This document shows, piece by piece, positions 9,226 through 39,133 of a DNA stretch of 64,000 nucleotides. Origin of the DNA: Chloroflexia bacterium (GTDB lineage Bacteria; Chloroflexota; Chloroflexia; Thermomicrobiales; CADCWN01); NCBI GenBank assembly GCA_046328475.1, contig JAXLWN010000019.1, positions 12,323-76,322 of the forward strand, in the 5' to 3' direction. How positions within the stretch are numbered: the first letter of the stretch is position 1; every line of letters begins with the position of its first letter. The position numbers and the translations under genes are program-made. The notes under the pieces were generated by a model that was given only the letters and a program-made list of their open reading frames with translations, was not told the DNA's origin and searched no databases.

Positions 9226-9244
9226 TCCGCCACGAGCGATGAGC

Positions 9245-9290
9245 AACGAGCGAAGCGCGGTGGGCAGTTGCCCACCGCGCTTCGCTCGTT
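9245..9290. terminator. perfect 22-bp-stem hairpin between convergent genes
   Basis: aacgagcgaagcgcggtgggca-gt-tgcccaccgcgcttcgctcgtt. No clear U-tract. It lies between the NlpC/P60 (+) and TerC (-) stops. Confidence 0.5.
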
Positions 9291-9307
9291 CGATTGCCTA
9301 CGGGCGA

Positions 9308-10306: not shown

Positions 10307-10379
10307 TGCCCAGCCTCCAGTTCATGCCGGGCCGCGGGGCAAAGAAAAACGCGAGCCCCCACGGCACAATGAAGTGACG

Positions 10380-10495
10380 TGGTGGTCTCGCCGTCCGTGG
10401 CTGCGCACGTTCCCGAGCGACCGGGGGCTGGTGGCCCCGTACTGACGATCGCGCGGCCCGCGTGGGGATCACGCGGGTGGCTACTCCCCTACCGA
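10380..10495 (-). promoter_or_regulatory. yybP-ykoY-type (Mn2+) riboswitch candidate in the TerC leader
   Basis: The minus strand reads ..tAGGGGAGUAGCC.. (complement of 10481-10491), then GUCAGUAC, then ACGGCGAGACCACC (complement of 10381-10394). This matches the conserved GGGGAGUAG and GAGACC cores. The genomic context (TerC/Alx) is the classic one. Confidence 0.65.
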
Positions 10496-10569
10496 CTGGC
10501 AGCGTAGCACGCGAGCGAAGCGCCGATCAAGGGTTGCGGGGGGCTATGGCAAGAATCGGGAAGTTTGCC

Positions 10570-10605
10570 CCGGTGGCGGCGGGAAGGTCTTCCCGCCGCC
10601 ACCGG
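10570..10605. terminator. perfect 17-bp-stem hairpin downstream of the acyl-CoA ligase gene
   Basis: ccggtggcggcgggaag-gt-cttcccgccgccaccgg, immediately 3' of the minus-strand stop at 10616. Confidence 0.5.
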
Positions 10606-10615
10606 GAGGGAAGGG

Positions 10616-12153
10616 CTACGGACGCTCGACGGCGACCATGCCGGAGTCCAGCTGCCCGCGCTCGGTGACGAGGGCGGAGCGGCGGACTTTGCCCGCCTCC
10701 GAACGGAGGAAGGAGTCGGCGAACTCGTAGGTCTTGGGGACCTTGTAGGCGGCGAGGCGTTCGCGGCAGTAGGCGTCGAGGTCGGCCACGGCGGGCGGGT
10801 CGGCGGGATCGGCGGGTTGCACGATCGCGTGGACGCGCTTGCCCCACTCGACGTCGGGGACGCCGATGACGACGACATCGCCGATGGCGGGGTGGCCGCT
10901 GAGGACGGCCTCCACCTCGGCCGGGTAGACGTTGGCACCGCCGGTGATGATCAAGTCCACCCGGCGGTCGGCGAGGAAGAGGTAGCACTCGTCGTCGAGC
11001 CAACCGAGGTCGCCCATGGTGTGAAGCCGTCGGGGGTGGACCTGGCGGGGGCGAGCCGATGTATTCGTGGGTCGGGGCGAGGGGCCTTTCAGGCGCAGGA
11101 AGATCTCGCCGACCTGCCCGGTCGGGAGGTCGTTGCCCTCGGCGTCGAGGATGCGGACGTCGGAGAAGGTGGTCCGCCCGACGCTGCCGGGGTGGGCCAG
11201 CCACTCATCGCCCCGGATGGCGGTGGCACCGATGCCCTCGGTCATCGAGCAGAGCCGTAAATTTCTCGGGGCCGATGCGAGGTCGAACCAGGCGCGCTTG
11301 AGCCAGGGTGGGCAGGGGCGGCGGTGCTGGCGATGCCCCGGAGGCTGGAAAAGTCGTGCTCGCGGACATCCGGGAGGTTGGCGATGCGCTGCATGGCGGT
11401 GGAGGCGCAGAAGATCCACTCGATGCGGTGCCGCTCGATCAGGTCCACGGCGTGGGCGGCGTCGAAGCGGTCCATGATGACCAGGGTGTGGCCGTAGAAG
11501 AGGCCGAGGTAGGCCCCGTTCCAGGAGGTGGCGTGGTAGAGGGGGCCGATGACGAGCTGGACCTGATTGGCCCCGGAGCCGAGGGCGGTCAGGAGGAGCG
11601 CGACGTTCGCCGGGTCGCCTTCCTGCCGGCCGGGGGTGACGATGATCTTGGGGCGGCCGGTGGAGCCGCCGGAGGCGAGGGCGCGGCCGGGTTCGGAGAC
11701 GTTGTCGGGGAGGGAATCGGCGGGGTTCTCGGCGGCGCGGGCGAGGTCGGCGGGGGGGAGGCTGGGATAGGCGAGGCCGGACCAGTCGGAGATGACGAGC
11801 GCGGGGTTGGCGAGGTCGAGGATGGCGTCTCGCTCGTAGGGGGGCAGGGCGGCGCGGAGGGTGAGGACCATCGCGCCGAGCTTCCAGAGGGCGAAGCTGA
11901 TCGCGACGTGCTCGGGGCTGTTGGGGAAGCCGATGACGACGGTATCGCGCTCGCCGATGCCCCGGTCGGCGAGCAGGCGCGCGACCTGGTTGGCCTGGCG
12001 CTCCAGCTCGGCCCAGGTGGTGCGGCGCTCTGCGCCGTGGAGTGGGGCGAAGATGAGCGCGGTGGCGTCGGGGCGCTCGGCGGCGAGTTGGGTGAGGCGG
12101 CGACCGTAGGAGACCGGCTGCGGGGTGGGTGCGGTGGTTGCGGACATCGGCAT
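10616..12153 (-). pseudogene. AMP-dependent synthetase/ligase (acyl-CoA synthetase family), multiply frameshifted
   Basis: The N-terminal 300 aa are in one frame (ASGGSTGRPKII P-loop motif). CPPWLKRAWFDL, SMTEGIGATAIRGDEWLAHPGSVGR and HTMGDLGWLDDECYLFLADRRVDLIITGGANVYPAEVE...AYKVPK are in another frame, with garbled stretches between. Confidence 0.8.
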
Positions 12154-12299
12154 CCTCCCTCAATGGCGCGGTTTGTGGGGCGGTCTGGCGTGCGGGGGAT
12201 AGTAGCACGGCCGGGGCGGGGGTGTGGGGCGTGAGGGCGTGAGAGCGTGAGGGCGTGAGGGCGTTCGTGTGTAAGTGCGACTGTGTGTAAATGGATTAC

Positions 12300-12700
12300 A
12301 TGTAAGCGGAGTGGCGCGCTTACGCGGGGGAAAGTAGGTTTGTTTTGCGGTTTTTAACCTTCTCCTTCTCCGGGCGCGGGTGGGGCGAGGCGCAAAGCGA
12401 AAAAGACGGATGCTTCGCTGCGCTCAGCATGACAGGGGGGCGGGGGGCGGCGTAGGGGTGAGGGTGTGGCTGGCGAAGGCAAGGCCCCCCTACATCCCCC
12501 CAATCCTGGGGGGACTTTGACGTGTGGCGAGCGAAGATGGTGATGCTCATGGTAGGGCCTCCTTGGTGGTGTGGGTAGGGCGCGTCGTGGCGAACGGGTA
12601 TGAGCGCCGGGTTGTCTGGGCGGCGAGAAGATGGCCGCTATCTCTACGGACCCATCGAGGGGGGCGGATCATGCCACAGTGGGGGAAATTGGGTGGTGAG
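12300..12700. repeat. mosaic intergenic repeat element, copy B (inverted relative to 7060-7400)
   Basis: 12323-12348 and 12637-12685 are reverse complements of 7364-7389 and 7102-7150. It also contains the cttcgctgcgctcagcatgaca module seen at 25083 and 49103. Confidence 0.75.
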
Positions 12701-25230: not shown

Positions 25231-26304
25231 ATGGCGATGGGGGAGACGGGATATGTGAGGATGGTGCGCCGGGGTGGGATGCTCGGGCGATTGCTGCGGG
25301 CGCTCGGCGCGGTTTCGCTCTTCTGGAAGGTGCTGCTCGCCAATGCGGTGCTGGTGCTCGGCTCGGTGCTGGCGGGGATGTTGCTGGCGGCGCACGCGGC
25401 GACGAGCACGCGCGAGGAAGAATCCTGGGCGCTGCTGGGCTATGCGGCGGGGGTGACGGGGCTGACGCTGCTGGTCAATGCGCTGGTGCTGCGCGCGGCA
25501 TTTTTGCCATTGCAGCGATTGGAGCGAACGGCTGACGCGGTGCGGCGGGGGGATTATCGCCGCCGCGCGCCGCATTCGCTCTTGAACGATCCGATGATCC
25601 AGCGGCTCACCGATGCGTTCAACGCGATGCTGGCGGTGCAGGAGGAGGGGCGCGCGGAGTTGGCGGCGTTGTCATCGCGGGCGCTGGCGGCGCAGGAGGA
25701 GGAGCGGCGGCGGATCGCGCGCGAGTTGCACGATGAGACGGCGCAGGAATTGACGGCGCTGCTGGTGCGGATCCGGCTGGCGGCGGATGGGAGTCGCGAG
25801 CCGGCGACGCGCGAGCGGTTGGCCGAACTGCGCGCGGCGGCGGCGAACGCGCTCGACGGGGTGCGTCGGCTGGCGCGCGAGTTGCGGCCGACGATTCTGG
25901 ACGACCTGGGACTGGTGGAGGCGGTGCGGGCGCACGCGCAGGATCTCTCGGCGCGGGGTCTGGTGAAGATCGCGGTGGAGGTGACGGGCTGCGAGGATCG
26001 GCTCGACCCGGACCGCGAGTTGGTGCTCTACCGCGTGATTCAGGAGGCGTTGAGCAACGCGGTGAAGCACGCCGAGGCGCGATCGATCGAGGTGACGCTG
26101 GCGCGCTCCGACGGCGCGATCACGGCGATGGTCTCGGATAATGGCCGGGGCTTCGATCCGGCGAAGGTGGTCGTGCCCTCGCCGACGGGGCAGGGGCTCG
26201 GTCTGCTGGGGATGCGCGAGCGGCTGACGCTGGTCGGCGGTAAGCTGGAACTCGATGCGCTGCCGGGGGGCGGGACGACGGTGCGGGCGACGGTGCCGGT
26301 GTGA
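25231..26304 (+). CDS. sensor histidine kinase, NarL/DegS type (HisKA_3 + HATPase_c)
   Basis: Two N-terminal TM helices, a HAMP-like linker, an H-box ERRRIARELHDETAQ, an N-box EALSNAVKHA and G-boxes DNGRGF and GLGLLGMRER. The start codon is uncertain. Confidence 0.85.
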   Translation: MAMGETGYVRMVRRGGMLGRLLRALGAVSLFWKVLLANAVLVLGSVLAGMLLAAHAATSTREEESWALLGYAAGVTGLTLLVNALVLRAAFLPLQRLERTADAVRRGDYRRRAPHSLLNDPMIQRLTDAFNAMLAVQEEGRAELAALSSRALAAQEEERRRIARELHDETAQELTALLVRIRLAADGSREPATRERLAELRAAAANALDGVRRLARELRPTILDDLGLVEAVRAHAQDLSARGLVKIAVEVTGCEDRLDPDRELVLYRVIQEALSNAVKHAEARSIEVTLARSDGAITAMVSDNGRGFDPAKVVVPSPTGQGLGLLGMRERLTLVGGKLELDALPGGGTTVRATVPV

Positions 26305-26433: not shown

Positions 26434-27105
26434 ATGAGCGAAACGATGGTCCGGCCGATTCGGGTGCTGCTGGCGGATGACCACGGGATTTTGCGCGCGG
26501 GGTTGCGGGCGCTGCTGGGGAATGAGCCGGATATCGAGGTGGTCGGCGAGGCGGCGGATGGCGAGGAGGCGGTCGCGCAGACAGCGGCGCTCGATCCGGA
26601 TGTGGTGGTGCTCGATATTGCGATGCCGCACCTGGACGGGTTGGAGGCGACGCGGCGGATTCGCGACCGGGGCTTGCGCGCGAAGATCCTGATCCTGACG
26701 GTGCACGCGGAGGAGCGGTATCTGCTGCCGGTGCTGCGCGCGGGCGGCGCGGGCTATGTGCTGAAGAGCGGCGCGGATACCGATCTGCTCGACGCGATCC
26801 GGACGGTGGCGCGCGGCGATGCGTTCCTCTACCCAGGCGCGACGCGGCTGCTGCTCTCCGAGTATCTGGGCAAGGAGGGGGAGCCGCGCGACCGGAGCAA
26901 GGCGCTGTCGGAGCGGGAGCGGCAGGTGCTGGCGCTGACGGCGGAGGGCTATAGTGCCCAGGAGATCGGCGAGCGGCTGATCCTGAGCCCGAAGACGGTG
27001 GAGACTTATCGCGAGCGGGCGATGCAGAAATTGGGGCTGCGGCGACGGGCGGATATTGTGCATTACGCGCTGAGGAGCGGGTTGTTGCAGTCGCCGGAAG
27101 GGTAG
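26434..27105 (+). CDS. NarL/FixJ-family response regulator (REC + LuxR HTH)
   Basis: IRVLLADDHGILRAGL...DVVVLDIAMPHLDG...KILILT, followed by LSERERQVLALTAEGYSAQEIGERLILSPKTVETYR. Confidence 0.9.
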   Translation: MSETMVRPIRVLLADDHGILRAGLRALLGNEPDIEVVGEAADGEEAVAQTAALDPDVVVLDIAMPHLDGLEATRRIRDRGLRAKILILTVHAEERYLLPVLRAGGAGYVLKSGADTDLLDAIRTVARGDAFLYPGATRLLLSEYLGKEGEPRDRSKALSERERQVLALTAEGYSAQEIGERLILSPKTVETYRERAMQKLGLRRRADIVHYALRSGLLQSPEG

Positions 27106-27169
27106 GGCGAATGACGAATGACGATTGACGAATGAGGCGGGGCCTGAGTTGGGCGGGGGAGGAGGGGGA

Positions 27170-27460
27170 ATGGTTTCGTTGCAGTCCACGGTGGTGGCGG
27201 CGACCGAGCAGGTTTCGGCCGATCTGGATGGGGAGATGGCGATCCTCAATTTGAGCAACGGGGTCTATTACGGGCTCAATCCGGTCGGGGCACGGGTTTG
27301 GGAGCTGGTGCAGGCACCGGGGACGGTCGCCGCGCTCTGCGAGCAATTGCTGGCGGAGTTCGACGTGGAGCGGGGGCGCTGCGAGCAGGAAGTGCTGGCG
27401 CTGCTGGCCGATCTGGAGGGCGCGGGGTTGGTCGAGGTGCGCGATGGGCAGGCTGCGTAA
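27170..27460 (+). CDS. PqqD-family protein: lasso-peptide B1 (RiPP recognition element)
   Basis: 96 aa: VSADLDGEMAILNLSNGVYYGLNPVGARVWELV...LCEQLLAEFDV. ATG 27170 follows GGAGGAGGGGGA. It overlaps the B2 start by 17 nt. Confidence 0.85.
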   Translation: MVSLQSTVVAATEQVSADLDGEMAILNLSNGVYYGLNPVGARVWELVQAPGTVAALCEQLLAEFDVERGRCEQEVLALLADLEGAGLVEVRDGQAA

Positions 27461-27881
27461 GCTGCTCGCGTTGTCGGGTGCCGAGCGACGGCTGCTGATC
27501 CGGGCGCTGCCGCTGGTGGTGCTGGTGCGGGTGGCGCTGTGGGTGCTGCCGTTTCGCAGGCTGCGGCGCTGGCAGGGGCGCTGGGCAACCCCGGCGGCGA
27601 GCGTGCGGGGCGACGAGGCGATGATCCCGCCGGTGGTGCGCGCGGTGACGCTCGCCAGCCGGGCGGTGCCGGGGGCGTCCTGTTTGACGCAGGCGCTGGC
27701 GGCGCAGGTGCTGCTGGCGCGACGCGGTTGCCCGAGCGAGCTGCGGCTGGGCGTCGGGCGCGGGGCGGATCGCCGCTTCGCGGCCCATGCGTGGCTCGAA
27801 TATGAGGGGCGGCCGATCATCGGGGAGTTCGAGGCCGGGCGCTTCACCCCGCTGCCGACATTGGCCGGGGAGCGGCGGTGA
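27444..27881 (+). CDS. lasso-peptide B2 leader peptidase (transglutaminase-like Cys protease)
   Basis: 145 aa with CLTQALAAQVLLARRG (catalytic Cys context) and HAWLEYEGRPI (His), typical of the lasso B2 family. Confidence 0.85.
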   Translation: MGRLRKLLALSGAERRLLIRALPLVVLVRVALWVLPFRRLRRWQGRWATPAASVRGDEAMIPPVVRAVTLASRAVPGASCLTQALAAQVLLARRGCPSELRLGVGRGADRRFAAHAWLEYEGRPIIGEFEAGRFTPLPTLAGERR

Positions 27882-29749
27882 GTCGCCTCGCCGCGCTGTT
27901 CCGCCGCGACGGACGATCGGTCGATCCCGATGAGCTGGCCCGGATGCTCGCCGCGCAGGAGCATCCGGGCCAGGTTGGCGTGGCGACGTGGGTCTCCGGG
28001 GCGGTCGGGCTCGGCGAGCGGCTGCGGCCGACCACGGGGCCGGGGCAGGGCACCATCGCCGGGCTGCCGGGTGGCGATGCGCTGGCAATCGCGGCGGAGG
28101 TGCGGCTCGACAATCGCGACGAACTGATCGCGGGGCTGGGGCTGCGCGGGCGCGAGAGCGAGATCGCCGATGCCGAGATTATCCTGCACGCCTATCGCGC
28201 GTGGGGCGAGGGGTGCTCGGCGCGGTTGATCGGCGATTTCGCGTTTGCGCTGTGGGACGGCGGGCGGCAGACGCTCTTTTGCGCCAGGGATCCGCTGGGG
28301 GTGCGGCAACTCCACTACGCCGCGAATGACCATTTCTGCGCGGTGGCAACGTCGCTGCCGGGGGTGCTGGCCCTGTCGGCGGTTTCGCGGCGGCTGGATG
28401 AGGGAAAGGTTGCGGAGTTCCTGACGCCCGGTCCGGAGGATCTGGCGCGCACGTTTTTTCGCGACATCGCGCGCCTGCCAGCGGGACACGCGCTGGTTGT
28501 GACCGCCGAGCGGGTACGCGTCGCGCCCTACTGGTCGTTCGCGGGCCAGCGCGAGGTGCGTTACCGGCGCGACGAGGAGTATGGCGAGGCGTTCCGCGCG
28601 CTCTTCGGCGAGGCGGTGCGCTGCCGGTTGCGGAGCGTCGCACCGGTGGGGGCGATGCTGAGCGGCGGGCTCGATTCTTCGTCGGTCGTCTGCGTGGCGC
28701 GGCAGGAGCGCGCGGCGGACGCGAACGAGCTCTTGCCGACGTTCAGCCTGATTTTCCCGCAGACGCCAGCCGCCGATGAGCGTGAGTATGCGCAGGCGGT
28801 GATCGATGGCGGGGGGCTGGAGCCGCATTTCGTCGATGGTGACGCGGTCAGTCCGCTGGTCGGGATCGACCGCCTGCTGGCGCTGGCGGGGCAGCCCTAC
28901 TGGGGGCCGTCGCTCTGCCTCCAATGGGAGACCTACGCGGCGGCGCGGCGGCGCGGCCTGGGGGTGCTGCTCGATGGCACCGGGGGCGACCAGGTGGTCT
29001 CGTTCGGGCTGGAGTTGCTGACGGAACTGGCGATGCGCGGTCGCTGGGTGGCGCTCGGGCGGGAGATCGCGGGATTGCGGCGCAATTTCGGCTTCGGGGC
29101 GGGCTATCTCCTGCGGGGCTACGCGATCAGCCCCCTGATCCCGGAGCCGCTGCGCCGGGTGCGGCGGCGCTGGCAGCGCGGCGCGATGCAGCAGCAGGCG
29201 ACGGGGTTCATCGCCGCGCCGTTCGCCGCGCGGCTCGGCGAGCGTCGGCAGCCCGCGCCGGGGAGGCGCGCGGCGCGGGACCGGCACGCGGCGACCTTGC
29301 CGCAGCAGCTCCTGCGCGACGTTTTCGACCAGGCGGCGGCGACGTTCGGGATCGAGCCGCGCTATCCGTTCCTCGACCGGCGGGTGGTGGAGTTCTGCCT
29401 GGGGCTGCCGGCCGAGCAGAAGCTGGCGCGGGGGATGACGCGCGCGATCGTCCGCCGCGCCCTCGGCGACCTGCTGCCACCGGCGGTGCGCGACCGGACG
29501 AGCAAGGCGACGCCCGCGCGGAGCCTGATGCGCAACCTGCTCGCCCACGAGCGCGAACGCCTCGACGCGGCGATCCTCGGGGAGCCGCCGCCGGTGGTGC
29601 GGGAATATATCGACGTGGACGCGCTCCGCGCGGCGTACCTGGCCTATCGCGAGCGCGGGGCGGGGGAAGCGACGTGGCTCGAGGTCGCGCGAATCTGGAA
29701 GACGGCGGTGCTGGCGATCTGGTTGCGGGGAGACACATTCGCGTGGTGA
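27878..29749 (+). CDS. lasso-peptide cyclase C (asparagine-synthetase B-like)
   Basis: 623 aa: GDFAFALWDGGRQTLFCARDPLGVRQLHY and the PP-loop MLSGGLDSSSVV. The GTG start overlaps the B2 stop (GTGA). Confidence 0.9.
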   Translation: MSRLAALFRRDGRSVDPDELARMLAAQEHPGQVGVATWVSGAVGLGERLRPTTGPGQGTIAGLPGGDALAIAAEVRLDNRDELIAGLGLRGRESEIADAEIILHAYRAWGEGCSARLIGDFAFALWDGGRQTLFCARDPLGVRQLHYAANDHFCAVATSLPGVLALSAVSRRLDEGKVAEFLTPGPEDLARTFFRDIARLPAGHALVVTAERVRVAPYWSFAGQREVRYRRDEEYGEAFRALFGEAVRCRLRSVAPVGAMLSGGLDSSSVVCVARQERAADANELLPTFSLIFPQTPAADEREYAQAVIDGGGLEPHFVDGDAVSPLVGIDRLLALAGQPYWGPSLCLQWETYAAARRRGLGVLLDGTGGDQVVSFGLELLTELAMRGRWVALGREIAGLRRNFGFGAGYLLRGYAISPLIPEPLRRVRRRWQRGAMQQQATGFIAAPFAARLGERRQPAPGRRAARDRHAATLPQQLLRDVFDQAAATFGIEPRYPFLDRRVVEFCLGLPAEQKLARGMTRAIVRRALGDLLPPAVRDRTSKATPARSLMRNLLAHERERLDAAILGEPPPVVREYIDVDALRAAYLAYRERGAGEATWLEVARIWKTAVLAIWLRGDTFAW

Positions 29750-29771: not shown

Positions 29772-29800
29772 TTGACACACCATGGGCGCATCCTGATAAT
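29772..29800 (+). promoter_or_regulatory. candidate strong sigma-70 promoter for the precursor genes
   Basis: Perfect TTGACA (29772-77), a 17-nt spacer, then GATAAT (29795-29800). It sits in the AT-richer cyclase/precursor intergenic region, about 75 nt upstream of the A1 start. Confidence 0.55.
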
Positions 29801-29874: not shown

Positions 29875-30048
29875 GTGAAGACGCCGCGCCAGGGGTCGGT
29901 GACGTTGGTGCCGGGCGAGGGTGCCCGGGCGAAGCAGATCTGGGAAACGCCGCAACTGACGACGCACGGCACGGTGGGGAAGATCACCGCCGGGGGTGGG
30001 GGCCAGGATCCTGACACCGGCGGCGGCAACAGCGCACTCACCAATTGA
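29875..30048 (+). CDS. lasso peptide precursor A1
   Basis: GTG lies 9 nt after AGGAG. The 57-aa product is (M)KTPRQGSVTLVPGEGARAKQIWETPQLTTHGTVGKITA|GGGGQDPDTGGGNSALTN. The leader has W-17, P-14, L-12, G-8 and T-2. Confidence 0.8.
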   Translation: MKTPRQGSVTLVPGEGARAKQIWETPQLTTHGTVGKITAGGGGQDPDTGGGNSALTN

Positions 30049-30088: not shown

Positions 30089-30211
30089 ATGGCAAAGCGC
30101 ACCTGGACAACCCCGAAGCTACAGGTCCACGGCACGGTGGCGGAGATTACGGCTGGGGGTGGTGGCCAGACTCCAGACACCGGCGGTGGGAACAGCGGGC
30201 TCCTCCAGTAA
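30089..30211 (+). CDS. lasso peptide precursor A2
   Basis: ATG follows AAGGAGAGG. The 40-aa product is MAKRTWTTPKLQVHGTVAEITA|GGGGQTPDTGGGNSGLLQ. Confidence 0.85.
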   Translation: MAKRTWTTPKLQVHGTVAEITAGGGGQTPDTGGGNSGLLQ

Positions 30212-30284: not shown

Positions 30285-30746
30285 ATGGCGATGCGCACCT
30301 GGGATACCCCGCAGTTGCATGTTCACGGTACCGTGGGACAGATCACCGCCGGGGGCGGCGGGAACTCGCCCGATACGGGGGGCGGGAACAGCGCGCTGGT
30401 GGCTGTGCCATCGGACCGGGCGCTGAAGGAGCGCGTGGTTCCGGTGGACCAGCGGGCGATCTTGCAGCGTGTGGCCGAATTGCCGATCGCGAGCTGGAAC
30501 TACACGGCGCAGCCGCCGTCGATCCGGCACATCGGGCCGATGGCGCAGGATTTCGCGGCGGCGTTCGGGGTCGGCGAGAGCGATAAGCAGATCAACCTGA
30601 TCGATGCCAACGGGGTGGCGCTGGCGGCGATCCAGGCGCTGGCCGCGCAGGTGCAGGCGCAGCAGGTTGAACTCGAACAATTGCGCGCCGAACTGGCGGC
30701 GGTGCGCCGCAGGACCGCCACCGGGCCGGATGACGTCGTCGCCTGA
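30285..30746 (+). CDS. lasso peptide precursor A3 fused to a peptidase-S74-like intramolecular chaperone/self-cleaving domain
   Basis: ATG follows GAGAGAGG. The product is MAMRTWDTPQLHVHGTVGQITA|GGGGNSPDTGGGNSALVAVP-SDRALKERVVPVD...WNY...HIGPMAQDF...LIDANGVALAAIQALAAQVQAQQVELEQL. S43-x4-K48 matches the S74 Ser/Lys dyad spacing. Confidence 0.75.
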   Translation: MAMRTWDTPQLHVHGTVGQITAGGGGNSPDTGGGNSALVAVPSDRALKERVVPVDQRAILQRVAELPIASWNYTAQPPSIRHIGPMAQDFAAAFGVGESDKQINLIDANGVALAAIQALAAQVQAQQVELEQLRAELAAVRRRTATGPDDVVA

Positions 30747-30770: not shown

Positions 30771-31679
30771 ATGAGCGCCCTACCGTTCAGCTATCGAGCT
30801 TATGGCCTGACGATCCGCTCCGATCTCGCGCTGCCGGAACTCGCATCCGGCGGCGAGGGGGTCGGGGCGGATGTCGTTGTGCGCTTCGGTGCGGTGGCCG
30901 AGGAGGAGGCGGTCCCGCGCGTCGGGAATACGACGGTGCGGATCGTGCCGGAGGGGATGCAACTGGCCTATCCGGAGGTCGGGCGCTTCCTGGTGCGCGA
31001 GGGGCGCGAGGTCGTGGTCGCGCTCAGGCCCGGTGCGGACGAGCGGGATGTGCGCCTGAGTTTGCTCGGGCCGGTGCTGGCGGTGTTGCTTCACCAGCGC
31101 GGGTTGCTGGTGCTGCACGGGAGCGCGGTGGCGCTGGGTGACGGGGCGGTCGGGCTGCTGGGGCACGCCGGGGCGGGAAAATCGACGCTGGCGGGGGCGT
31201 TCCTGGCGGCGGGCTACCGGCCGCTGGCGGACGATCTGACGGTGGTCGATCTCACAGGGCCGACGCCGACCGCGCTCCCGGGGTTCCCGCAATTGAAGCT
31301 CTGGCCGCAATCGGTGACGGCGCTTGGCGGCAACCCGGAGACGCTGCCGGCGCTGGGGGCGCGGGTGGAAAAACGCGCCCGGCGGCTGGCAGCGGGCTTC
31401 GCGCCAGAGCCGCTGCCGCTGCGACGGCTGTACGTGATCGCGGATGGCGAGCGGGTGGCGAGCGAGCCGCTGGCGGGGCAGGAGGCGTTGGTCGAGTTGG
31501 TGCGGCACTCGTTTTGCGCGGTGCTGCTGCCCGCCGGGGGGCAGGGCGAGCATTTCCGGCAGTGCGCGGCGCTGCTGCGGATGGTGCCGCTGAGCCGCCT
31601 CGCGCGGCCGAAGGAGTTCGCGGCGCTCCCGGCGATCATCCGGGCGATCGCGGGGGAGGCGGGCGATGGCGACCGCTAG
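30771..31679 (+). CDS. HPr-kinase-related kinase (lasso precursor kinase-like)
   Basis: 302 aa. LVLHGSAVALGDGAVGLLGHAGAGKSTLAGAF (P-loop) resembles the HprK C-terminal fold found in lasso clusters. Confidence 0.7.
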   Translation: MSALPFSYRAYGLTIRSDLALPELASGGEGVGADVVVRFGAVAEEEAVPRVGNTTVRIVPEGMQLAYPEVGRFLVREGREVVVALRPGADERDVRLSLLGPVLAVLLHQRGLLVLHGSAVALGDGAVGLLGHAGAGKSTLAGAFLAAGYRPLADDLTVVDLTGPTPTALPGFPQLKLWPQSVTALGGNPETLPALGARVEKRARRLAAGFAPEPLPLRRLYVIADGERVASEPLAGQEALVELVRHSFCAVLLPAGGQGEHFRQCAALLRMVPLSRLARPKEFAALPAIIRAIAGEAGDGDR

Positions 31680-32898
31680 CGCGGCCCACCCCGCCATGCC
31701 AGACGCCGCCGAGGGGTTGCTGATCTGGTGCGCGCGGCCGATCCGCGATGCGGCGGTGGCGGCGCACATCGGCGAGTATGCGGCGGCGATCGAGGATTGG
31801 GAGGCGCTCGAGCGGCTGGCGTGGCGGCACGGCGTGCTGCCGCTGCTGGTGCGCGGCCTGACAGCCCTGCCGCCGGGCGCGGTGCCGCCCGAGGCGCTGG
31901 CGCAACTGCGGGCGCAGTATCTGGAGCGGTCGCAGCGCGCGATGGTCATGACCGGGGAATTGCTCGGGGTGCTGGCCGCGCTGGAGGAGGCGGGGATCGC
32001 GGCGATCCCCTACAAGGGGCCGGTGCTGGCGGCGCAGGCGCACGGGAATGTCTCGCTGCGACAGTTCCGCGATCTCGACATCCTGGTCGCGCCCGGGGAG
32101 GTGGATCGCGCGGAGGCGGTGTTGGCGGCGCGCGGCTACCGCCATGTCGCCCCGCTGACGGCGCTGGAGCGGCGGCTGATCCGACTGGGGGGGAGCGAAT
32201 TCGAGCTGGCGCGGGGCGACGGGACGCTGGTGGAGTTGCACTGGCAACTCTTCGGGCACTATTTCGCGCTGCCGCTCGACCTGGGGGCGCTGCGGGCGCG
32301 GCTGGTGCCGCTGCCGCTGGGCGGGCGAATGGTGCGGACCTTCGCGCTGGAGGATCTGCTGCTGATCCTCTGCGCGCACGGCGGCGACCACAGCTGGGAG
32401 CGGCTGGAGTGGATCGCGGACGTGGCGGCGCTGGTGGCGCGGCAGCCGGATCTCGATTGGGACGCGCTGATCGCGCGGGCGCGGCGGGCGGGGGGGCTGC
32501 GGATGGTCCTGCTGGGGCTGCAGCTGGCGAGCGATCTGCTCGACGCGCCGGTGCCAGATCGGGTGCTGATGCTGGCGCGGGCCGATGGCAGGGTCGGGGC
32601 GCTGGCGGCGGCGATGCGCGCGGCGCTCTTCGATGAGGCGCTGGCGATCCGGCGGTCGGAGCGGCCGATCTACGTCTTCAACCTGGCGATGCGGGAGCGG
32701 CGGCGCGACCGGGTGCATTACTGGCTCAGCCGGGCGTTCGTGCCGACGGTGGAGGATGCGGCATTCGTCGCCCTGCCCGCGCGGCTGCTCCCGCTCTATT
32801 TCCTGCTCAGGCCGTTGCGGCTGATCGCCCTGTTCTGCCTGCGAATCGCCCGACGCGGCCGGGCGACGGGGCGGACATCCGCGCCGACCGGCCCATGA
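31666..32898 (+). CDS. nucleotidyltransferase-family protein (NTP_transf_5-like)
   Basis: 410 aa: IPYKGPVLAAQAHGNVSLRQFRDLDILVAPGEVDRAEAVLAARGY...ELHW. It overlaps the kinase gene by 14 nt. Confidence 0.7.
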   Translation: MATASAAHPAMPDAAEGLLIWCARPIRDAAVAAHIGEYAAAIEDWEALERLAWRHGVLPLLVRGLTALPPGAVPPEALAQLRAQYLERSQRAMVMTGELLGVLAALEEAGIAAIPYKGPVLAAQAHGNVSLRQFRDLDILVAPGEVDRAEAVLAARGYRHVAPLTALERRLIRLGGSEFELARGDGTLVELHWQLFGHYFALPLDLGALRARLVPLPLGGRMVRTFALEDLLLILCAHGGDHSWERLEWIADVAALVARQPDLDWDALIARARRAGGLRMVLLGLQLASDLLDAPVPDRVLMLARADGRVGALAAAMRAALFDEALAIRRSERPIYVFNLAMRERRRDRVHYWLSRAFVPTVEDAAFVALPARLLPLYFLLRPLRLIALFCLRIARRGRATGRTSAPTGP

Positions 32899-34697
32899 TG
32901 CTCGACCTGGGACGCGCGCACCTCGCCTGGCTGGCGACGCTGGCGCGACGACAAGCGCTGGTGGCGCTCGGGCTGCTCTGCGCGGCGGGGCTGACCGAGG
33001 GGACGGGGCTGCTGCTGCTGCTACCACTGCTGCAACTGGTCGGGATCGACGTGGGGCAGGGTGCGCCCGCGCGCCTGGCGCGCGTGGTCGCCGCGGGCTT
33101 CGCGCGGGTGGGAGCGCGACCGACGCTGGAACTCGTGCTGCCGCTCTATGTCGCAATCGTGGGGGTGCAGGCGCTGCTCGTGCGACGGCAGGCGGGCGCG
33201 CAGATCGCGCTGCAATACGCGCTCGTTGACCGGCTGCGCGGGCGATTGTACCGGGCGATCGCGGGGGCGAACTGGCCGTTCCTGTCGCGCCAGCGGATAG
33301 CCGAACTGACGCACGCGCTGACCTCCGAGAGCGACCGGATCGGGGCGGCGACGCAATATCTCGGCCAGTTGTGCGCGGCGGGGCTGGTGGCGGCGGTCTA
33401 CCTGCTGCTCGCGGTGCAGATCTCGGCGGCGCTGACGGGGCTGATCGGGCTGTGCGGGCTGGCGCTGCTGTTCGCGCAGCGGCAACAGCGGCGGCGGGTG
33501 GGGGAGGCGGGCGAGGCGCTGACGCAGTCGTTGCGTCGCTGGCACAGCGCGGCGAGCGAGCTGCTGGGCGGGCTGAAGCTGATCAAGAGCACCGGGTCCG
33601 AGGCGCGGAGCATCGCGCACGCCGACGAACGGATCCGGGCGGTGAGCGCGGCGCACGGCGCGGTGGTGCGGGGGCAGGCGGCGGCGAAGAGCTGGCTCGA
33701 TATCGGCGCGGTGGCCCTGCTGAGCGGGATCGTCTATGTCGCGGTGCGGGGGCTGCACCTGTCGGCGGCGGGGCTGCTGCTGCTGATCTTCCTCTTCGCC
33801 AGGGTGCTGCCCCGGCTGACCGGCGCGATCCAGAGCTACCACAATTACATCGCGCTGCTGCCGGCGGTCGGCGCGGTGCGGGAGCAGCTGGCGCGGTGCG
33901 AGGCGGAGGCGGAGGCACCGAAGGATGCCACCGCGACGTTCGCGCTGCGATCGGCGGTGGCGTTCGAGGGGGTGGAATTCGGGTATGCACCTGGGCAGAC
34001 GGTGGTGGGGCCGCTCGATCTGGTCATCCCGGCGGGGCGGACGACGGCGATCGTGGGGCCGTCGGGCGCGGGGAAGAGCACGCTGGCGGATTTGCTGCTC
34101 GGGTTGCTGGAGCCGACGGCGGGGGCGATCCGCGTCGATGGGCAACCGCTGCTGTCGCAGCAGCGCGGGGCGTGGCAGCGACAGATCGGCTATGTGCCGC
34201 AGGAGGCGCTGCTCTTCCACGATTCGCTGCGGGCGAATGTCTGCTGGGACCGGCCGGAGGCGTCGGAGGGGGAGATCGCTGCGGCGCTGGGCCAGGCGGC
34301 GGCCGAGTTCGCCTGGCTGCTGCCCGAAGGGCTGGACACCGTCGTCGGGGAGCGCGGGACGCGGCTTTCGGGCGGGGAGCGGCAGCGGGTGGCGCTGGCC
34401 CGCGCGCTGCTGCGCAACCCGGCGCTGCTGATCCTGGACGAGGCGACCAGCAATCTCGATGTCGAGAGCGAGGGGCGCATCCTGGCGACGCTGGAGGCGC
34501 TGCACCAGCGGGTGACGATTCTGCTGATCACGCACCGGCTGGCGACGGCCCGGCTGGCCGACACGATCCATGTGCTGCAAGCGGGGCGAATCGTGCAATC
34601 GGGCGATTGGGAAGCCCTGATCACCGACCGAACGGGACAATTCCACGCGCTCTGGCAGACGGCCAGCGTCGAGCAGGTGCCGCCGAGGGTGGGGTGA
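32895..34697 (+). CDS. ABC exporter, fused permease/ATPase (lasso D, McjD-like)
   Basis: 600 aa with 6 TM helices, Walker A GPSGAGKST, the signature LSGGERQRVALARAL and Walker B LLILDEATS. It has an ATGA overlap with the upstream gene. Confidence 0.9.
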   Translation: MMLDLGRAHLAWLATLARRQALVALGLLCAAGLTEGTGLLLLLPLLQLVGIDVGQGAPARLARVVAAGFARVGARPTLELVLPLYVAIVGVQALLVRRQAGAQIALQYALVDRLRGRLYRAIAGANWPFLSRQRIAELTHALTSESDRIGAATQYLGQLCAAGLVAAVYLLLAVQISAALTGLIGLCGLALLFAQRQQRRRVGEAGEALTQSLRRWHSAASELLGGLKLIKSTGSEARSIAHADERIRAVSAAHGAVVRGQAAAKSWLDIGAVALLSGIVYVAVRGLHLSAAGLLLLIFLFARVLPRLTGAIQSYHNYIALLPAVGAVREQLARCEAEAEAPKDATATFALRSAVAFEGVEFGYAPGQTVVGPLDLVIPAGRTTAIVGPSGAGKSTLADLLLGLLEPTAGAIRVDGQPLLSQQRGAWQRQIGYVPQEALLFHDSLRANVCWDRPEASEGEIAAALGQAAAEFAWLLPEGLDTVVGERGTRLSGGERQRVALARALLRNPALLILDEATSNLDVESEGRILATLEALHQRVTILLITHRLATARLADTIHVLQAGRIVQSGDWEALITDRTGQFHALWQTASVEQVPPRVG

Positions 34698-34851: not shown

Positions 34852-35832
34852 ATGCGGGAGCACTGGTCAACGGAGACCACGCCGCCAACTCAGCGACGCA
34901 CACGCCTGCCGCGAGGTTGGCGGGCGCTGCCTGCGCGCCGCGAAGCACCGCGCCGCGAACGCGAGATCGAGGAGACCTTCTCGGAGCGCGAGTTGCTGGC
35001 GCGCTATCTGCGCGAGGCGGGGAAGATCCCCCTCCTGACGCCGACCGCCGAGGCCGAACTCTTCCGCCAACTCGAAGAAGGGGACGCCGACGAGCGCCGG
35101 GAGGCGCGATCGCAACTGATCGCGGCGAATTTGCGGCTGGTCGTCGGCGTGGCGCGGCACTATGTGGGGCTGGGCCTGACGCTGCCGGAGTTGATCGCCG
35201 AGGGGAACCTGGGGCTGATCGCGGCGGTGGACCGCTTCGAGCGGTCGCGCGGGCACCGCTTCAGCACGTTCGCGCGCTGGCCAATCCGCAAGGCGATCAC
35301 ACGGTCGCTCGATGACCGCGCGCGGCTGGTGCGGTTGCCGGCGAATAGCTGGCAGGCACTGCGCGAACTCAGGAAGGCGGAGGAGACGCTGCCCGATACG
35401 CTCGGGCGCGAGCCGACGCCGGCCGAACTGGCGGCGGCGTGCAAGGTGGCGACCTGGCGCTTCGATTCGCTGCGGGTGGCGGCGGCGGCCCCGGTCTCGA
35501 TCGACACCCCGGCGCGCAACGGCCACGCGGATGAGTCCGAGGAGATGACGCTGGGCGAGACGCTGGAGGACCACGAGCGGGCGCTGCCGACGCTGGTGGG
35601 GAACCACATCGCGCGCGATCAACTCGGGACGCTGCTCGACGCGCTGACGCCGCGCGAGCGGGCATTGCTGGTGCTGCGGCATGGCCTGGATGGGGGTGCG
35701 CCGCGCACGTTGCAGCAGGTGGGGGCGGCGCTGGGGATCTCCGGCGAGCGGACGCGGCAGTTGGAGGCGCGGGCGCTCGATCAGTTGCGGGCGCACCCGC
35801 TGGTGGCGGCGCTGCGGGATGCGATTGAGTGA
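34852..35832 (+). CDS. sigma-70-family RNA polymerase sigma factor (regions 2-4, RpoD-like non-ECF)
   Basis: LIAANLRLVVGVARHY, LIAEGNLGLIAAVDRFE...FSTFARWPIRKAITRSL, LVRLPAN, and region 4 TLQQVGAALGISGERTRQLEARAL. The start is uncertain. Confidence 0.85.
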   Translation: MREHWSTETTPPTQRRTRLPRGWRALPARREAPRREREIEETFSERELLARYLREAGKIPLLTPTAEAELFRQLEEGDADERREARSQLIAANLRLVVGVARHYVGLGLTLPELIAEGNLGLIAAVDRFERSRGHRFSTFARWPIRKAITRSLDDRARLVRLPANSWQALRELRKAEETLPDTLGREPTPAELAAACKVATWRFDSLRVAAAAPVSIDTPARNGHADESEEMTLGETLEDHERALPTLVGNHIARDQLGTLLDALTPRERALLVLRHGLDGGAPRTLQQVGAALGISGERTRQLEARALDQLRAHPLVAALRDAIE

Positions 35833-36787: not shown

Positions 36788-37779
36788 CTACCATGGCGGG
36801 TAGGGATGTGGGGGTGGGGTTAGTGGTGGGTGGCTGGGGAGGGGGTGGGGGGACGGGGGGTGGTAGCGGATTTCGGTGAGGCCGGCGCGTTTGGTGGCGG
36901 AGGTTGGCCGGCGAAGGGGGCGCGGAAGGTGCCGGAGGTGGGGGCGACGTCGCCGTAGTCGCGGCCGGTGGCGACGGTGATGTAGTTGAGGCCGGGGCGG
37001 TTGCCGTGGGTGGGGTCGAAGGGGAGGGCGACGTAGCCATCGCCGTTGGGGCGCGGGGCGAGGACTTCGACCCAGGCGTGCGAGCCGCCCTCGCCGAGCA
37101 GGTGGCCGGAGACGTAGCGCGCGGGGAGGCCGCAGAGGCGGCAGATGGCGAGCATGATGTGGGCGTAGTCCTGGCAGACGCCGCGCTGGAGGGCGAGGGC
37201 TTCGGCGGCGGTGGTGCGCACGCCGGTGATGCCGTGCTCGTAGGTGAGCTGGGCGTGGACCCAGGCGTTGATGCGCGCGGCGAGGGCTTCGGGCGCGGCG
37301 TCGCCGATGGCGAGTTCGGCGGCGGCGGCGCGCGGGCGTCGTCGGGCTGGGTGAGCGCGGAGGGTTCGCTGAAGGCGGGGTTGCAGTAGGTATGTGCCGA
37401 GATGATGGCGGGGTCGCTGGTGGTGTCGCGCTCGACGACGATCCAGGCGACGAAATCGATTGAGCGCGCGATCTCCGTCGCGGAGAATGAGAGGACGAGG
37501 TTGCCGAACTCGTCGCGGGATTCCTGGGGGCGGGAGCTGTTCCGGCGGTTGGCCGGGGATGGCGATCTCCAGCTTGCGCGTGACCAGGCGCTGCCCGCCG
37601 TGGCGCTCGGGCGGGACGATCATCAGGCGCTGGTGCAGGTCGTGGATGGGGCCGGGGTAGTCGTAGCGCAGGTGCTGGTGGATCAGGTAAGCGGTCCATT
37701 GGACGCGCGGCCAGTCCACCCCGTGGTGATCGAGCGTGCCGAGCGTCGCGATCAGGGTTTCGAGATTCTCGTGCTCCAC
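36788..37779 (-). pseudogene. transglutaminase-family protein (Bact_transglu_N + transglutaminase core), internal frameshifts
   Basis: The core RGVCQDYAHIMLAICRLCGLPARYVSGHLL...SHAWVEV is intact. In the middle, SPANRRNSSRPQESRDEFGNLVLSFSATEIARSIDFVAWIVVERD is readable only in a different frame (about 37330-37565) although the long ORF stays open. The C-terminal ..KRAGLTEIRY is in a third frame. Confidence 0.75.
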
Positions 37780-37820
37780 GTCCCTTCCCCGCGTCCCTTC
37801 TCCCACCGTTCCCCCGCGCC

Positions 37821-38715
37821 TTATCCCTGGCGATCGACCACCCGCGCGGCGGTCGTGTCGGTGCCGCCGACCGGCGCGCTGACGGCGACCGTGGGGGCAT
37901 TCTCCGCGCCGACCACGTCGCACCAGACGGTCATGCGCCGGAATTGCGCCGCGCCGTAGGAGGTCATCATCGCCACATCGACCGCGTCGCGCCCGCGCCC
38001 GATCGGGATGCGCCCGATCAGGGGGCGATTGAAGCGCGCGTCGAAGGTGTACCAGCGCCCGCCCTGCGGCCCGCGTAAGTAGACCTCAAACCAGGCGTGG
38101 AAGTCCATCGCCGGATAGGGCAGTTCGAGGCTGACGTCAGGCATGTAGCCGAAGACGTAGCGCGCGGGGATATTCAGCGCGCGGCAGAAGGTGACGGCGA
38201 GGTGCGCGAAATCGCGGCACATGCCGCCCTGCGCGACGTAGACATCGACGGCGGTCGTCAGCGGGGTGCTGTAGAGGCCGTAGCGGATATTCTGGTGGAG
38301 CCAGTCGCAGACGGCCTGCACGCGTCCCCAGCCCAGCGGGGCCGCGCCGAAGAGGTGCCAGGCGGTGGCGGAGAGGGCATCGGAGAGGCAATAGCGGCTC
38401 GCCAGGGTGTAGAGGAGCACATCGTCGGGCAGATCTTCGACGGCGAACTGGGCGGCGGTGGGTTCGACTTCGTCGGGGTCGCCGGAGACCTCGACCTCGG
38501 CGTCGTAGCGGAGGGTGGTGGCACCGGGCGGGAGGGTGAAGCGGCGGCAGCGATTGCTGAAGCTGTCGCGGTACTCGTTGGAGTAGATCACGGGCACGGC
38601 ACCCCAGGCTTCCGTAAGCACCGGCGAGGGGTTGTCCGGGTGGGGCTGCACGAGCATGACCGAGGGTCGGCCAGGTCGTCTCATAGTCGAAGGCGCAGCC
38701 GACCCGTAAGCGCAT
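37821..38715 (-). pseudogene. transglutaminase-family protein paralog, one N-terminal frameshift
   Basis: MRLRVGCAFDYETTWPT (start 38715, AGGAG RBS) is in a different frame from the rest (..SVMLVQPHPDNPSP...GGMCRDFAHLAVTFCRALNIPARYVFGY...FHAWFEVY). Confidence 0.75.
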
Positions 38716-38731
38716 GGGGTACTCCTGGTTA

Positions 38732-38792
38732 CCTCACCCCCCGCCGCCTGCGGGCGGCACCCCCTCTCCATCTGCGGATAGGAGAGGGGGAG
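38732..38792. repeat. REP-like unit (family 1)
   Basis: cctcaccccccgccgcctgcgggcggcaccccctctccatctgcggataggagaggggga. Confidence 0.7.
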
Positions 38793-39133
38793 GGTGGTGA
38801 CGGTGTCGGGCATGGGCGCAACGGGCCGAGGGATGGCCTCGGCTGGCCGTTCGTCGGCTCATGCTTGCGATCATATGCTACTGGTAAGGATTGCTGGCCG
38901 CAAGGGGCGGGTTGCACCATACGGACCGGCTGGGGTTGTGCGGATGGCACAGGGCAGGGCGCGGGATGAGGGGAGAAGGGGGAAGGGGGAGGAGAGGGGC
39001 GAGAGGGGGCAGGCATTCTCTTCGCTGTGCTGATGATCAGCATGACACGACGGAAACTGGTGGCCTCCGGGAGAAGAACCCGGACGATTGCGGCGATGGC
39101 ACCACACAACGCGGGCGTCCCAGCGGGTCGCCT

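Follow-up and report, generated by a model that had tools for sequence, protein, structure and literature searches.

The locus and the A3 gene

The sequence analyzed here, referred to as the window, is a 64,000-nt stretch of a Chloroflexia bacterium genome (assembly GCA_046328475.1, contig JAXLWN010000019.1, positions 12,323 to 76,322 of the forward strand). According to Pfam and NCBIfam matches, it contains a lasso-type cluster for a peptide made on ribosomes and modified after translation (RiPP) in the order B1-B2-C-A1-A2-A3-kinase-nucleotidyltransferase-ABC, with a two-component pair upstream and a sigma-70 factor downstream. A1, A2, and A3 encode precursors, and this report concerns A3, in which a lasso-type leader and core are followed in frame by a domain of the peptidase S74 (intramolecular-chaperone) family. 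The fusion had been proposed in an earlier note made from the letters of the window alone.

The A3 open reading frame (ORF) at 30285-30746 of the forward strand is intact and encodes 153 amino acids (aa); it begins with an ATG at 30285, downstream of a Shine-Dalgarno-like GAGAGG, and its stop codon occupies 30744-30746. An alternative in-frame ATG lies at 30291, but the start at 30285 was favored because orthologues open with MA-x-R-x-W. A3 consists of a lasso leader (residues 1-22), a 20-aa core (23-42), and a Peptidase_S74/intramolecular-chaperone domain (43 to about 145). Its leader contains a YxxP-type motif (W6-D-T-P9) and a penultimate Thr (T21-A22), and the motif common to A1, A2, and A3 reads W-x-T-P-x-L-x-x-H-G-T-V-x-x-I-T-A. 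The cores of A1 and A2 follow the pattern GGGG-x-x-P-D-T-GGGNS-x-L and both end at core residue 18, whereas A3 runs 111 residues past the point where they stop. The ORF and motif scan agreed with the earlier note that A3 shares its leader and core with A1 and A2 and continues for about 110 residues. The junction was free of a stop codon or indel that would separate the domain from the precursor, the frame being open in the window and in three orthologous loci. At their C-termini, the three cores differ (A1 ..LTN, A2 ..LLQ, and, after the predicted cut, A3 ..AVP). The A3 core had a predicted local distance difference test score (pLDDT) below 50 in the AlphaFold2 (AF2) model, consistent with a disordered peptide. 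In our genome collection, the best match to A3 was 52% identical; syntenic relatives from metagenomes were closer (77-86%). A1 gave weak NCBIfam lasso matches below cutoff, and its orthologues are annotated as genes in relatives.

The C-terminal extension is a peptidase S74 domain

A profile search with the 153-aa product placed PF13884 (Peptidase_S74) on residues 43-94, covering profile positions 1-53 of 58; the score of 41.7 bits exceeded the gathering cutoff of 22 (E = 1.4e-10) and confirmed the family assignment of the earlier note. Ser43 (codon 30411-30413) and Lys48 (codon 30426-30428) have i/i+5 spacing, which the note had likened to the S74 catalytic dyad and which is indeed that of S587/K592 in MyRF and S1264/K1269 in T5 pb1. 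When the PDB was searched with a profile of the family, the best match was the ICA domain of MyRF, a weak hit (E = 0.08) that was in register: S43 aligned with residue 587 (S587(A)), K48 with K592, and W71/Y73 with Y615/Y617. The AF2 monomer of A3 had a pLDDT of 77, rising to 84-95 in a helix at residues 105-145. The heptad hydrophobics of this helix, as read from the sequence, are I114, L117, V121, L128, L131, L135, and V138, and a coiled coil is predicted. The top Foldseek match of the monomer was again the MyRF ICA domain (7dc3; probability 1.0, TM-score 0.48-0.53), and the chaperone domains of GA-1 and endoNF (3gud and 3gw6) came next. All top matches were S74 domains, but with E values of 0.01 or worse, and no other credible fold was found.

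The residues aligned in this way have assigned roles in MyRF, where mass spectrometry located the cut between P586 and S587, cleavage is lost in the S587A and K592A mutants, and Y615 and Y617 are required (PMC8326128). MyRF cleavage needs trimerization of the domain and can dispense with the upstream stalk (PMC8326128). T5 pb1 is cut between T1263 and S1264, with K1269 as the base, and cleavage of phage S74 domains is coupled to folding of the upstream triple beta-helix (PMC4690869).

Predicted cut site and core length

A cut before Ser43 would divide A3 into fragments with calculated masses of 4.1 kDa (residues 1-42) and 11.9 kDa (the domain), matching the ~4 and ~11-12 kDa estimated in the earlier note. 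The core end that it predicted, ..VAVP, agrees with the published cuts N-terminal to Ser and with the core lengths of the stand-alone paralogues. At every locus with both kinds of precursor, the fused core up to the Ser was about as long as the free cores: 20 aa against 18 and 18 in the window, 19 against 17 and 19 in L086, 19 against 18-20 in L088, 17 against 17 in L007, 12 against 13 in L015, and 7-11 against 7 in L014. The S74 domain therefore begins where the other precursors end, as a self-removing follower predicts. We also considered a cut on the other side of the Ser, which would give the kinase a C-terminal Ser of the paeninodin kind. This was rejected, since mass spectrometry of MyRF and the structure of T5 pb1 place the cut N-terminal to Ser; the idea is also contradicted by the S74-less paralogues, which do not have a terminal Ser.

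Gene cluster around A3

The features of the cluster are listed in Table 1. The matches of B1, B2, and C bore out the lasso-cluster context described in the earlier note. Homologues of cyclase C at ~40% identity carry the NCBI name lasso peptide isopeptide bond-forming cyclase; its only two close relatives are metagenomic. The two-component pair upstream is conserved. The sigma-70-like promoter match ahead of A1 was the sole one between 26000 and 36000, compared with a mean of 0.3 in shuffled sequence. Prophage genes were absent from the Pfam annotations of the surroundings, and an Rfam scan of the window gave no match. About 1 kb downstream of the sigma factor, two adjacent, overlapping transglutaminase-core (PF01841) genes occur on the reverse strand (36820-37923 and 37821-38813).

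Table 1. Features of the A3 locus (window coordinates)
Feature	Coordinates	Strand	Evidence and remarks
Histidine kinase	25231..26304	+	Pfam HisKA_3/HATPase_c; position kept in L086, L088
LuxR-type response regulator	26434..27105	+	Pfam Response_reg + GerE; syntenic in L086, L088, L090
B1, PqqD-family leader-binding chaperone (RiPP recognition element, RRE)	27125..27460	+	PF05402, 71 bits; NCBIfam lasso_PqqD_Bac 74.8, just below cutoff 80
B2, lasso leader peptidase	27444..27881	+	NF033537 lasso_biosyn_B2, 100 bits (cutoff 33); PF13471
C, lasso cyclase (asparagine-synthase-like)	27878..29749	+	PF00733, 180 bits
Sigma-70-like promoter match TTGACA-17-GATAAT	29772..29800	+	11/12 consensus positions; just upstream of A1; consensus match only
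A1, stand-alone precursor	29875..30048 (about)	+	Leader ..WETPQLTTHGTVGKITA, core GGGGQDPDTGGGNSALTN (18 aa); start codon uncertain; ORF and motif scan
A2, stand-alone precursor	30090..30211	+	Core GGGGQTPDTGGGNSGLLQ (18 aa); ORF and motif scan
A3 leader, residues 1-22	30285..30350	+	W6-x-x-P9, Gly15, Thr21 at -2, Ala22 at -1
A3 core, residues 23-42	30351..30410	+	GGGGNSPDTGGGNSALVAVP; predicted Gly1-Asp8 macrolactam; Ser14 candidate phospho-acceptor
A3 S74 catalytic part, residues 43-94	30411..30566	+	Putative nucleophile Ser43, Lys48, Trp71/Tyr73, RHIGPMAQDF; PF13884
A3 S74 remainder, C-terminal helix 105-145, short tail, and stop	30567..30746	+	AF2, heptads
K, HprK-related P-loop kinase	30771..31679	+	Walker A GHAGAGKST; best families TIGR04352 HprK_rel_A (34 bits, below cutoff) and Hpr_kinase_C (below threshold)
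N, NTP_transf_5 nucleotidyltransferase-fold tailoring enzyme	31666..32898	+	PF14907, 205.6 bits
ATP-binding cassette (ABC) exporter, fused transmembrane and ATPase parts	32895..34697	+	PF00005 + PF00664
Sigma-70 family factor	34852..35832	+	Pfam regions 1.2, 2, 3, 4; position kept in L086

Conservation in relatives and across phyla

The three metagenomic relatives (loci L086, L088, and L090) keep the gene order: in each, an S74-fused precursor lies immediately ahead of the kinase and is preceded by two to four short ones. Among these loci and the window, the pairwise ratio of non-synonymous to synonymous substitution rates (dN/dS) of the S74 part was 0.14-0.25. Purifying selection has maintained the precursor-S74 fusion, which is also seen repeatedly in different phyla. 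The synonymous rate (dS) was higher in the leader/core than in the S74 part. We rejected this as a sign of selection because leader/core cassettes are mosaic between paralogues, which accounts for the difference; the leader/core of A3 in the window is 92% identical at the DNA level to copy d of L090, whereas copy e is the nearest one to its S74 part. The nearest relative of the A3 leader/core, P0008 (L090 4078-4509; 143 aa), has an S74 part that loses similarity after ..ELPI, has no Pfam match, and looks frameshifted, decaying, or misassembled. A second, intact S74-fused precursor follows at L090 4541-5005.

A database search returned 2018 matches, and leader and core statistics were taken from the best 120. 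A lasso-type leader, a short core, S-D-R-x-x-K, and the remaining domain were present, in this order, in 66 of the 120. Core length in these 66 peaked at 17, the residue before the S74 Ser was Pro in 26 and Ile in 16, and 47 had an acidic residue (Asp or Glu) at core position 7-9, in almost all cases position 8. Asp44 (of SDR) as ring acceptor in the very short cores, for instance of Rokubacteria, L019, and L020, fitted a few cases by eye and was dismissed as a general rule, since only 2 of the 66 have Asp44 at position 7-9 and no core acid. In an alignment of 34 diverse members, leader P9, S43, D44, K48, W71, Y73, and R-H-x-G-P-M-A-Q-D-F were invariant, and leader G15 and T21 (the Thr at -2) were conserved in at least 90%. 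A member outside this alignment, from Floridaenema flaviceps (L013, about 10007-10465), has Cys in place of Ser43 (..NGF-C-DQNLKE..), keeps the Asp and Lys, and has its core Asp at position 9; a Ser-to-Cys exchange retains a nucleophile, as would be expected if one is required.

The leader-core-S74 layout was found in at least five phyla. Its hosts include Capsulimonas corticalis (Armatimonadota), a Thermomicrobiales metagenome-assembled genome (MAG) (Chloroflexota), Floridaenema (Cyanobacteriota), Phycisphaerales and Tepidisphaerales MAGs (Planctomycetota), and Rokubacteria and Methylomirabilia MAGs. In the near-complete 7.6-Mb assembly of C. corticalis, the fused gene (CCAX7_27030; predicted core FIGPNSGDGIIGSQVII) is the only precursor found in a cluster ordered C-A(S74)-K-B1-B2-N-acetyltransferase-MFS, the last gene being of the major facilitator superfamily. 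In the source databases, these ~150-aa proteins are annotated as 'hypothetical' or 'tail fiber domain-containing protein'. The S74 subfamily as a whole comprises 19,366 clusters at 50% identity, in most of which the domain is the C-terminus of a large fiber-like protein. The same was true of all 57 viral-contig matches with a recoverable frame (of 68), and none of these 57 had a lasso-type leader.

Some family members are concatemers. P0124 (382 aa) contains five leader-core-SDRxxKxxFxxVDxxxVL cassettes in tandem, of which only the last is followed by a full S74 domain, P0078 (189 aa) has two cassettes ahead of a single S74 domain, and P0146 (229 aa) and P0156 are of the same kind; they may be multi-core precursors or run-through gene calls. 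Other S74-fused genes are orphans without a neighboring kinase (L005/L009, L006, L022, and L092). L092 has two such genes in tandem (9001-9821), both encoding canonical Asp8 cores, next to the gene for a 938-aa SLT/M23 protein, and no lasso or kinase genes were present within 9 kb.

Association with PqqD and HprK-like kinase genes

The constant neighbors of S74-fused precursors were a PqqD gene and an HprK-like kinase gene rather than a lasso cyclase gene. Both were present at every non-orphan locus with sufficient flanking sequence (the window, L001, L003, L013, L015, L016, L019, L020, L086, L088, L090, L093, and L094). At the Phycisphaerales locus L015 (8992-12000), B1, B2, K, and N are present, the cores have no acid at position 7-9 and one has none at all, and a cyclase search gave no match. 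At L094 (2573-5196), three fused precursors are followed only by K and B1 (PqqD). These two clusters are without a lasso cyclase; their peptides cannot be lasso peptides.

In characterized clusters of the kinase type, the kinase acts on the linear precursor, phosphorylating its C-terminal Ser, and the nucleotidyltransferase then adds a hexose to the phosphate (PMC8498205). As no core in the window ends in Ser, the obvious candidate acceptor, by inference only, would be core Ser14 (codons 30030-30032 in A1, 30193-30195 in A2, and 30390-30392 in A3). A Ser 4-7 residues before the core end is kept in fused and free precursors alike (GGGNS here, G-S in most relatives) and falls at core positions 12-14 in most cores with Asp8.

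S74 domains behind other leaders

Small S74 proteins with other N-termini were also encountered. Nostocales and other cyanobacteria (Calothrix, Tolypothrix, Nostoc, and Aulosira) encode tandem pairs of ~180-aa proteins in which a double-glycine-type leader (..ELSDDELASCVGG) and ~45 residues ending in ..DPNGSxR[YF]x precede the S74 domain. In 12 of 12 sufficiently flanked loci, the pair lies beside a gene for a TPS-domain protein and upstream of a gene for a PatD-like cyclodehydratase (winged helix-turn-helix, E1-like, and YcaO parts). In L008, for example, the pair occupies 9045-9599 and 9782-10324 and the YcaO gene 10380-12608; further loci of this type are L010, L012, L023, L026, L034, L037, L043, L049, L061, L063, and L080. 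These pairs have the look of a second class of RiPP whose follower is an S74 domain.

A third class of small S74 proteins has the N-terminus ..VDPxKRDFLK..hydrophobic..AHAQGGSN.., resembling a twin-arginine translocation (Tat) signal (L163 3278-5789; P0040 contigs). Its genes directly follow those for PqqD and an HprK_rel_A-like kinase and precede one for a SunS-like glycosyltransferase; one locus adds NTP_transf_5, Stealth, and more glycosyltransferases. Neither lasso B2 nor C was present at the loci of this class. In Myxococcota (L017, L039, L041, L047, L052, L053, L069, and L084), Cys-rich proteins with repeated CxxCxxxC-like modules end in an S74 domain, with the junction ..CP(Q/R)GC(A/S)P(L/Q)C(A/V/Q)/SDRN(I/L)K.. 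(the slash before SDRN marking the junction), and are another non-fiber host of the domain.

Taking these classes together, we consider it an even question whether S74 is a general, hitherto unrecognized RiPP follower that was recruited from fiber-like proteins and serves at least three systems, in each of which a trimerization-gated cut before the Ser would define the C-terminus of the core as well as the timing of its release. The systems in question would be the lasso type with an HprK-like kinase, the type with PqqD, HprK-like kinase, and glycosyltransferases and no cyclase, and the cyanobacterial type with PatD-like YcaO and double-glycine leaders. A more daring and far less probable variant is that the ester intermediate of the cut is captured by some nucleophile instead of water, which would modify the C-terminus.

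Proposed function of A3 and alternative explanations

We judge it probable that A3 works as a precursor in a lasso (RiPP) pathway of the kinase type and carries a self-removing C-terminal follower. By analogy with MyRF and T5 pb1, three A3 chains would trimerize through their S74 domains and C-terminal coiled coil, Lys48 would activate Ser43, and the Pro42-Ser43 bond would be cut, freeing a 42-aa leader-core peptide that ends where A1 and A2 simply stop. To judge from the neighboring genes, B1 would bind the leader, B2 would cut after Ala22, and C would join Gly1 to Asp8. The Ser phosphorylated by the HprK-like kinase would most likely be Ser14, which is conserved in the cores; this phosphate may be extended by the NTP_transf_5 enzyme, and the ABC transporter would export the product. 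Cyclization could come before or after the cut, because lasso enzymes accept engineered C-terminal protein fusions. In our view, the most likely purpose of the S74 domain is that of a built-in, trimerization-gated C-terminal protease and protecting tag that would present the peptide to the PqqD/kinase machinery. It would leave a defined C-terminus, often ending in Pro or Ile.

Several observations weigh against this proposal. A1 and A2 manage without an S74 domain on nearly identical cores, so that the domain is not needed for such a core, and the A3 core has few bulky residues that could lock a lasso. A3 is without the upstream triple beta-helix to whose folding phage S74 cleavage is coupled. 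None of the three cores of the window ends in Ser, though characterized lasso kinases need a C-terminal Ser. The NCBIfam lasso-precursor models scored A3 below cutoff (NF033534, 17.6 bits against 30; NF033528, 17.4 against 33), which is weak evidence against a lasso assignment because the models are specific to lineage-level subfamilies. In the wider family, about a quarter of leader-bearing members have no acid at core position 7-9, the cyclase is missing in L015, and B2 and C are missing in L094. The label 'lasso' therefore fails for the family as a whole, since some cores are without the acid and some clusters are without a cyclase.

The loci without a cyclase bear on another possibility, of which we are doubtful, that the S74 domain mainly serves the kinase/nucleotidyltransferase module by presenting three peptides to the HprK-like kinase and PqqD or by coupling phosphorylation to cleavage. 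Definition of the C-terminus would then be secondary, so that this explanation refines rather than excludes the follower proposed above. The PqqD and HprK-like kinase genes flank the fused precursors at all non-orphan loci with enough surrounding sequence, including L015, which lacks the cyclase, and L094, which lacks B2 and C. The VDPxKRDFLK..AHAQGGSN class also directly follows PqqD and HprK_rel_A-like genes next to glycosyltransferase genes, and both this class and the lasso type commonly have a Ser 4-7 residues ahead of the junction. However, the same clusters contain S74-less precursors, characterized lasso kinases need no follower, the orphan fused genes have no neighboring kinase, and the association could reflect common descent of one cluster lineage. 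An uncut scaffold is unlikely. In that case the S74 domain would stay attached, the product would be a trimer with three modified (lasso or phosphorylated) N-terminal heads, and the domain might act as a stopper that holds a weakly locked tail in the ring. This would suit a core without bulky plug residues and a domain without the beta-helix on which phage S74 cleavage depends, and lasso-protein fusions are viable. Yet a pure scaffold has no need of an invariant Ser/Lys dyad and aromatic residues whose MyRF counterparts are essential for cleavage, nor of a nucleophile retained in the Ser-to-Cys variant; MyRF cuts without its upstream stalk, the exporter of the cluster is an ordinary peptide-type ABC transporter, and the fused core matches the free paralogues in length.

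We think it very improbable that the functional product is the S74 trimer after its release, in a structural or regulatory role, with the leader-core as a pro-peptide or by-product. Conservation within the protein is highest in the S74 part, and some members have almost nothing, or a signal peptide and ~8 residues, upstream of the Ser. These very short members may be truncated gene calls, however; the known functions of the domain are chaperoning and self-cleavage only, and the genes lie inside RiPP clusters and encode a leader that keeps the lasso recognition motif and a core that keeps Asp8. The decayed S74 part of P0008 indicates that such copies can break down, as expected if A3 were an accidental fusion, a pseudogene, or an assembly error that joined a precursor to a neighboring phage-derived gene. 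This last explanation has next to no probability left and is effectively refuted by the comparative data: the junction frame is intact in the window and three syntenic relatives with low dN/dS, the same layout recurs in 66 of the 120 best matches and in five phyla, prophage genes are absent nearby, and no viral contig had a leader among the 57 frame-recovered matches.

RiPP precursors are usually viewed as a leader and core, sometimes with a short follower, that are trimmed by separate proteases. To our knowledge, the S74 domain is known only from fibers of phages and extracellular contractile injection systems (eCIS) and from MyRF. The statement in the earlier note that no RiPP precursor with an autoproteolytic S74 follower is known agrees with our literature search, which covered few subscription papers and, for S74 linked to RiPPs, returned only phage, eCIS, MyRF, or unrelated papers. 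If the proposed function is correct, a folded, self-cutting follower would be a new RiPP design principle and a new biological use of the S74 domain, and it would explain why such genes are annotated as 'hypothetical' or tail fiber proteins instead of precursors. A follower that removes itself would also be a ready-made traceless C-terminal tag for peptide engineering. The link to PqqD and HprK-like kinases offers a substrate for these poorly understood kinases and, together with reuse of the module in other RiPP-like systems, is the most promising lead. S74-fused lasso/kinase-type RiPP precursors thus appear to be a conserved, widespread, and apparently undescribed way of making modified peptides.

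Comparison with known systems

The cluster resembles the kinase-type lasso clusters of paeninodin, pseudomycoidin, and the proteobacterial polyphosphorylated lasso peptides in its split B1/B2, C, HPr-kinase homologue, NTP_transf_5-type enzyme, and ABC exporter, and its precursors resemble theirs in the Thr at -2, Gly1, and Asp at core position 8. The precursors of those clusters are short, and their kinase target is the terminal Ser, whereas no core of the window ends in Ser; the window also differs in having three precursor genes, one with a 111-aa domain predicted to cleave itself, and in its host phylum. The kinases beside S74-fused precursors best match TIGR04352 of the NCBIfam 'HPr-rel-A system', and the PqqD proteins match TIGR04353 among others. 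Since scores were 34-44 bits against an equivalog cutoff of 200, we treat these kinases and PqqD proteins as relatives rather than members of that system.

With the phage S74 domains (MEROPS S74: K1F endosialidase, T5 pb1, and the GA-1/phi29 appendage), A3 shares the Pfam family, the i/i+5 Ser/Lys pair at the start of the domain, and, as predicted for A3, a mixed alpha/beta part with a long trimer-forming helix behind it and a cut N-terminal to the Ser. The phage domains follow a large trimeric beta-helix or fiber, help to fold it, and couple cleavage to that folding; the S74 domain of A3, which belongs to a cellular biosynthetic cluster, comes after a peptide of 42 aa that is probably disordered. 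The best match in sequence and fold is the MyRF ICA domain, which cuts between Pro and Ser (as predicted in A3), has an aromatic pair equivalent to W71 and Y73, releases an N-terminal cargo, and cleaves by domain trimerization without a stalk. MyRF is, however, a eukaryotic membrane transcription factor, and its cargo is a DNA-binding trimer and not a peptide for enzymatic modification.

Among RiPPs, the bottromycin follower and the cyanobactin C-terminal recognition sequence are short C-terminal extensions that are removed during maturation by separate enzymes, with the core lying internally. A3 also has an internal core and a C-terminal extension, but in its case a folded domain forms the extension and is predicted to cut itself off. 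Fusions of astexin-1 or pandonodin to green fluorescent protein (GFP) or a leucine zipper demonstrate that the lasso machinery tolerates a protein on the C-terminal tail; unlike A3, these fusions are man-made, need a linker, and do not cleave themselves.

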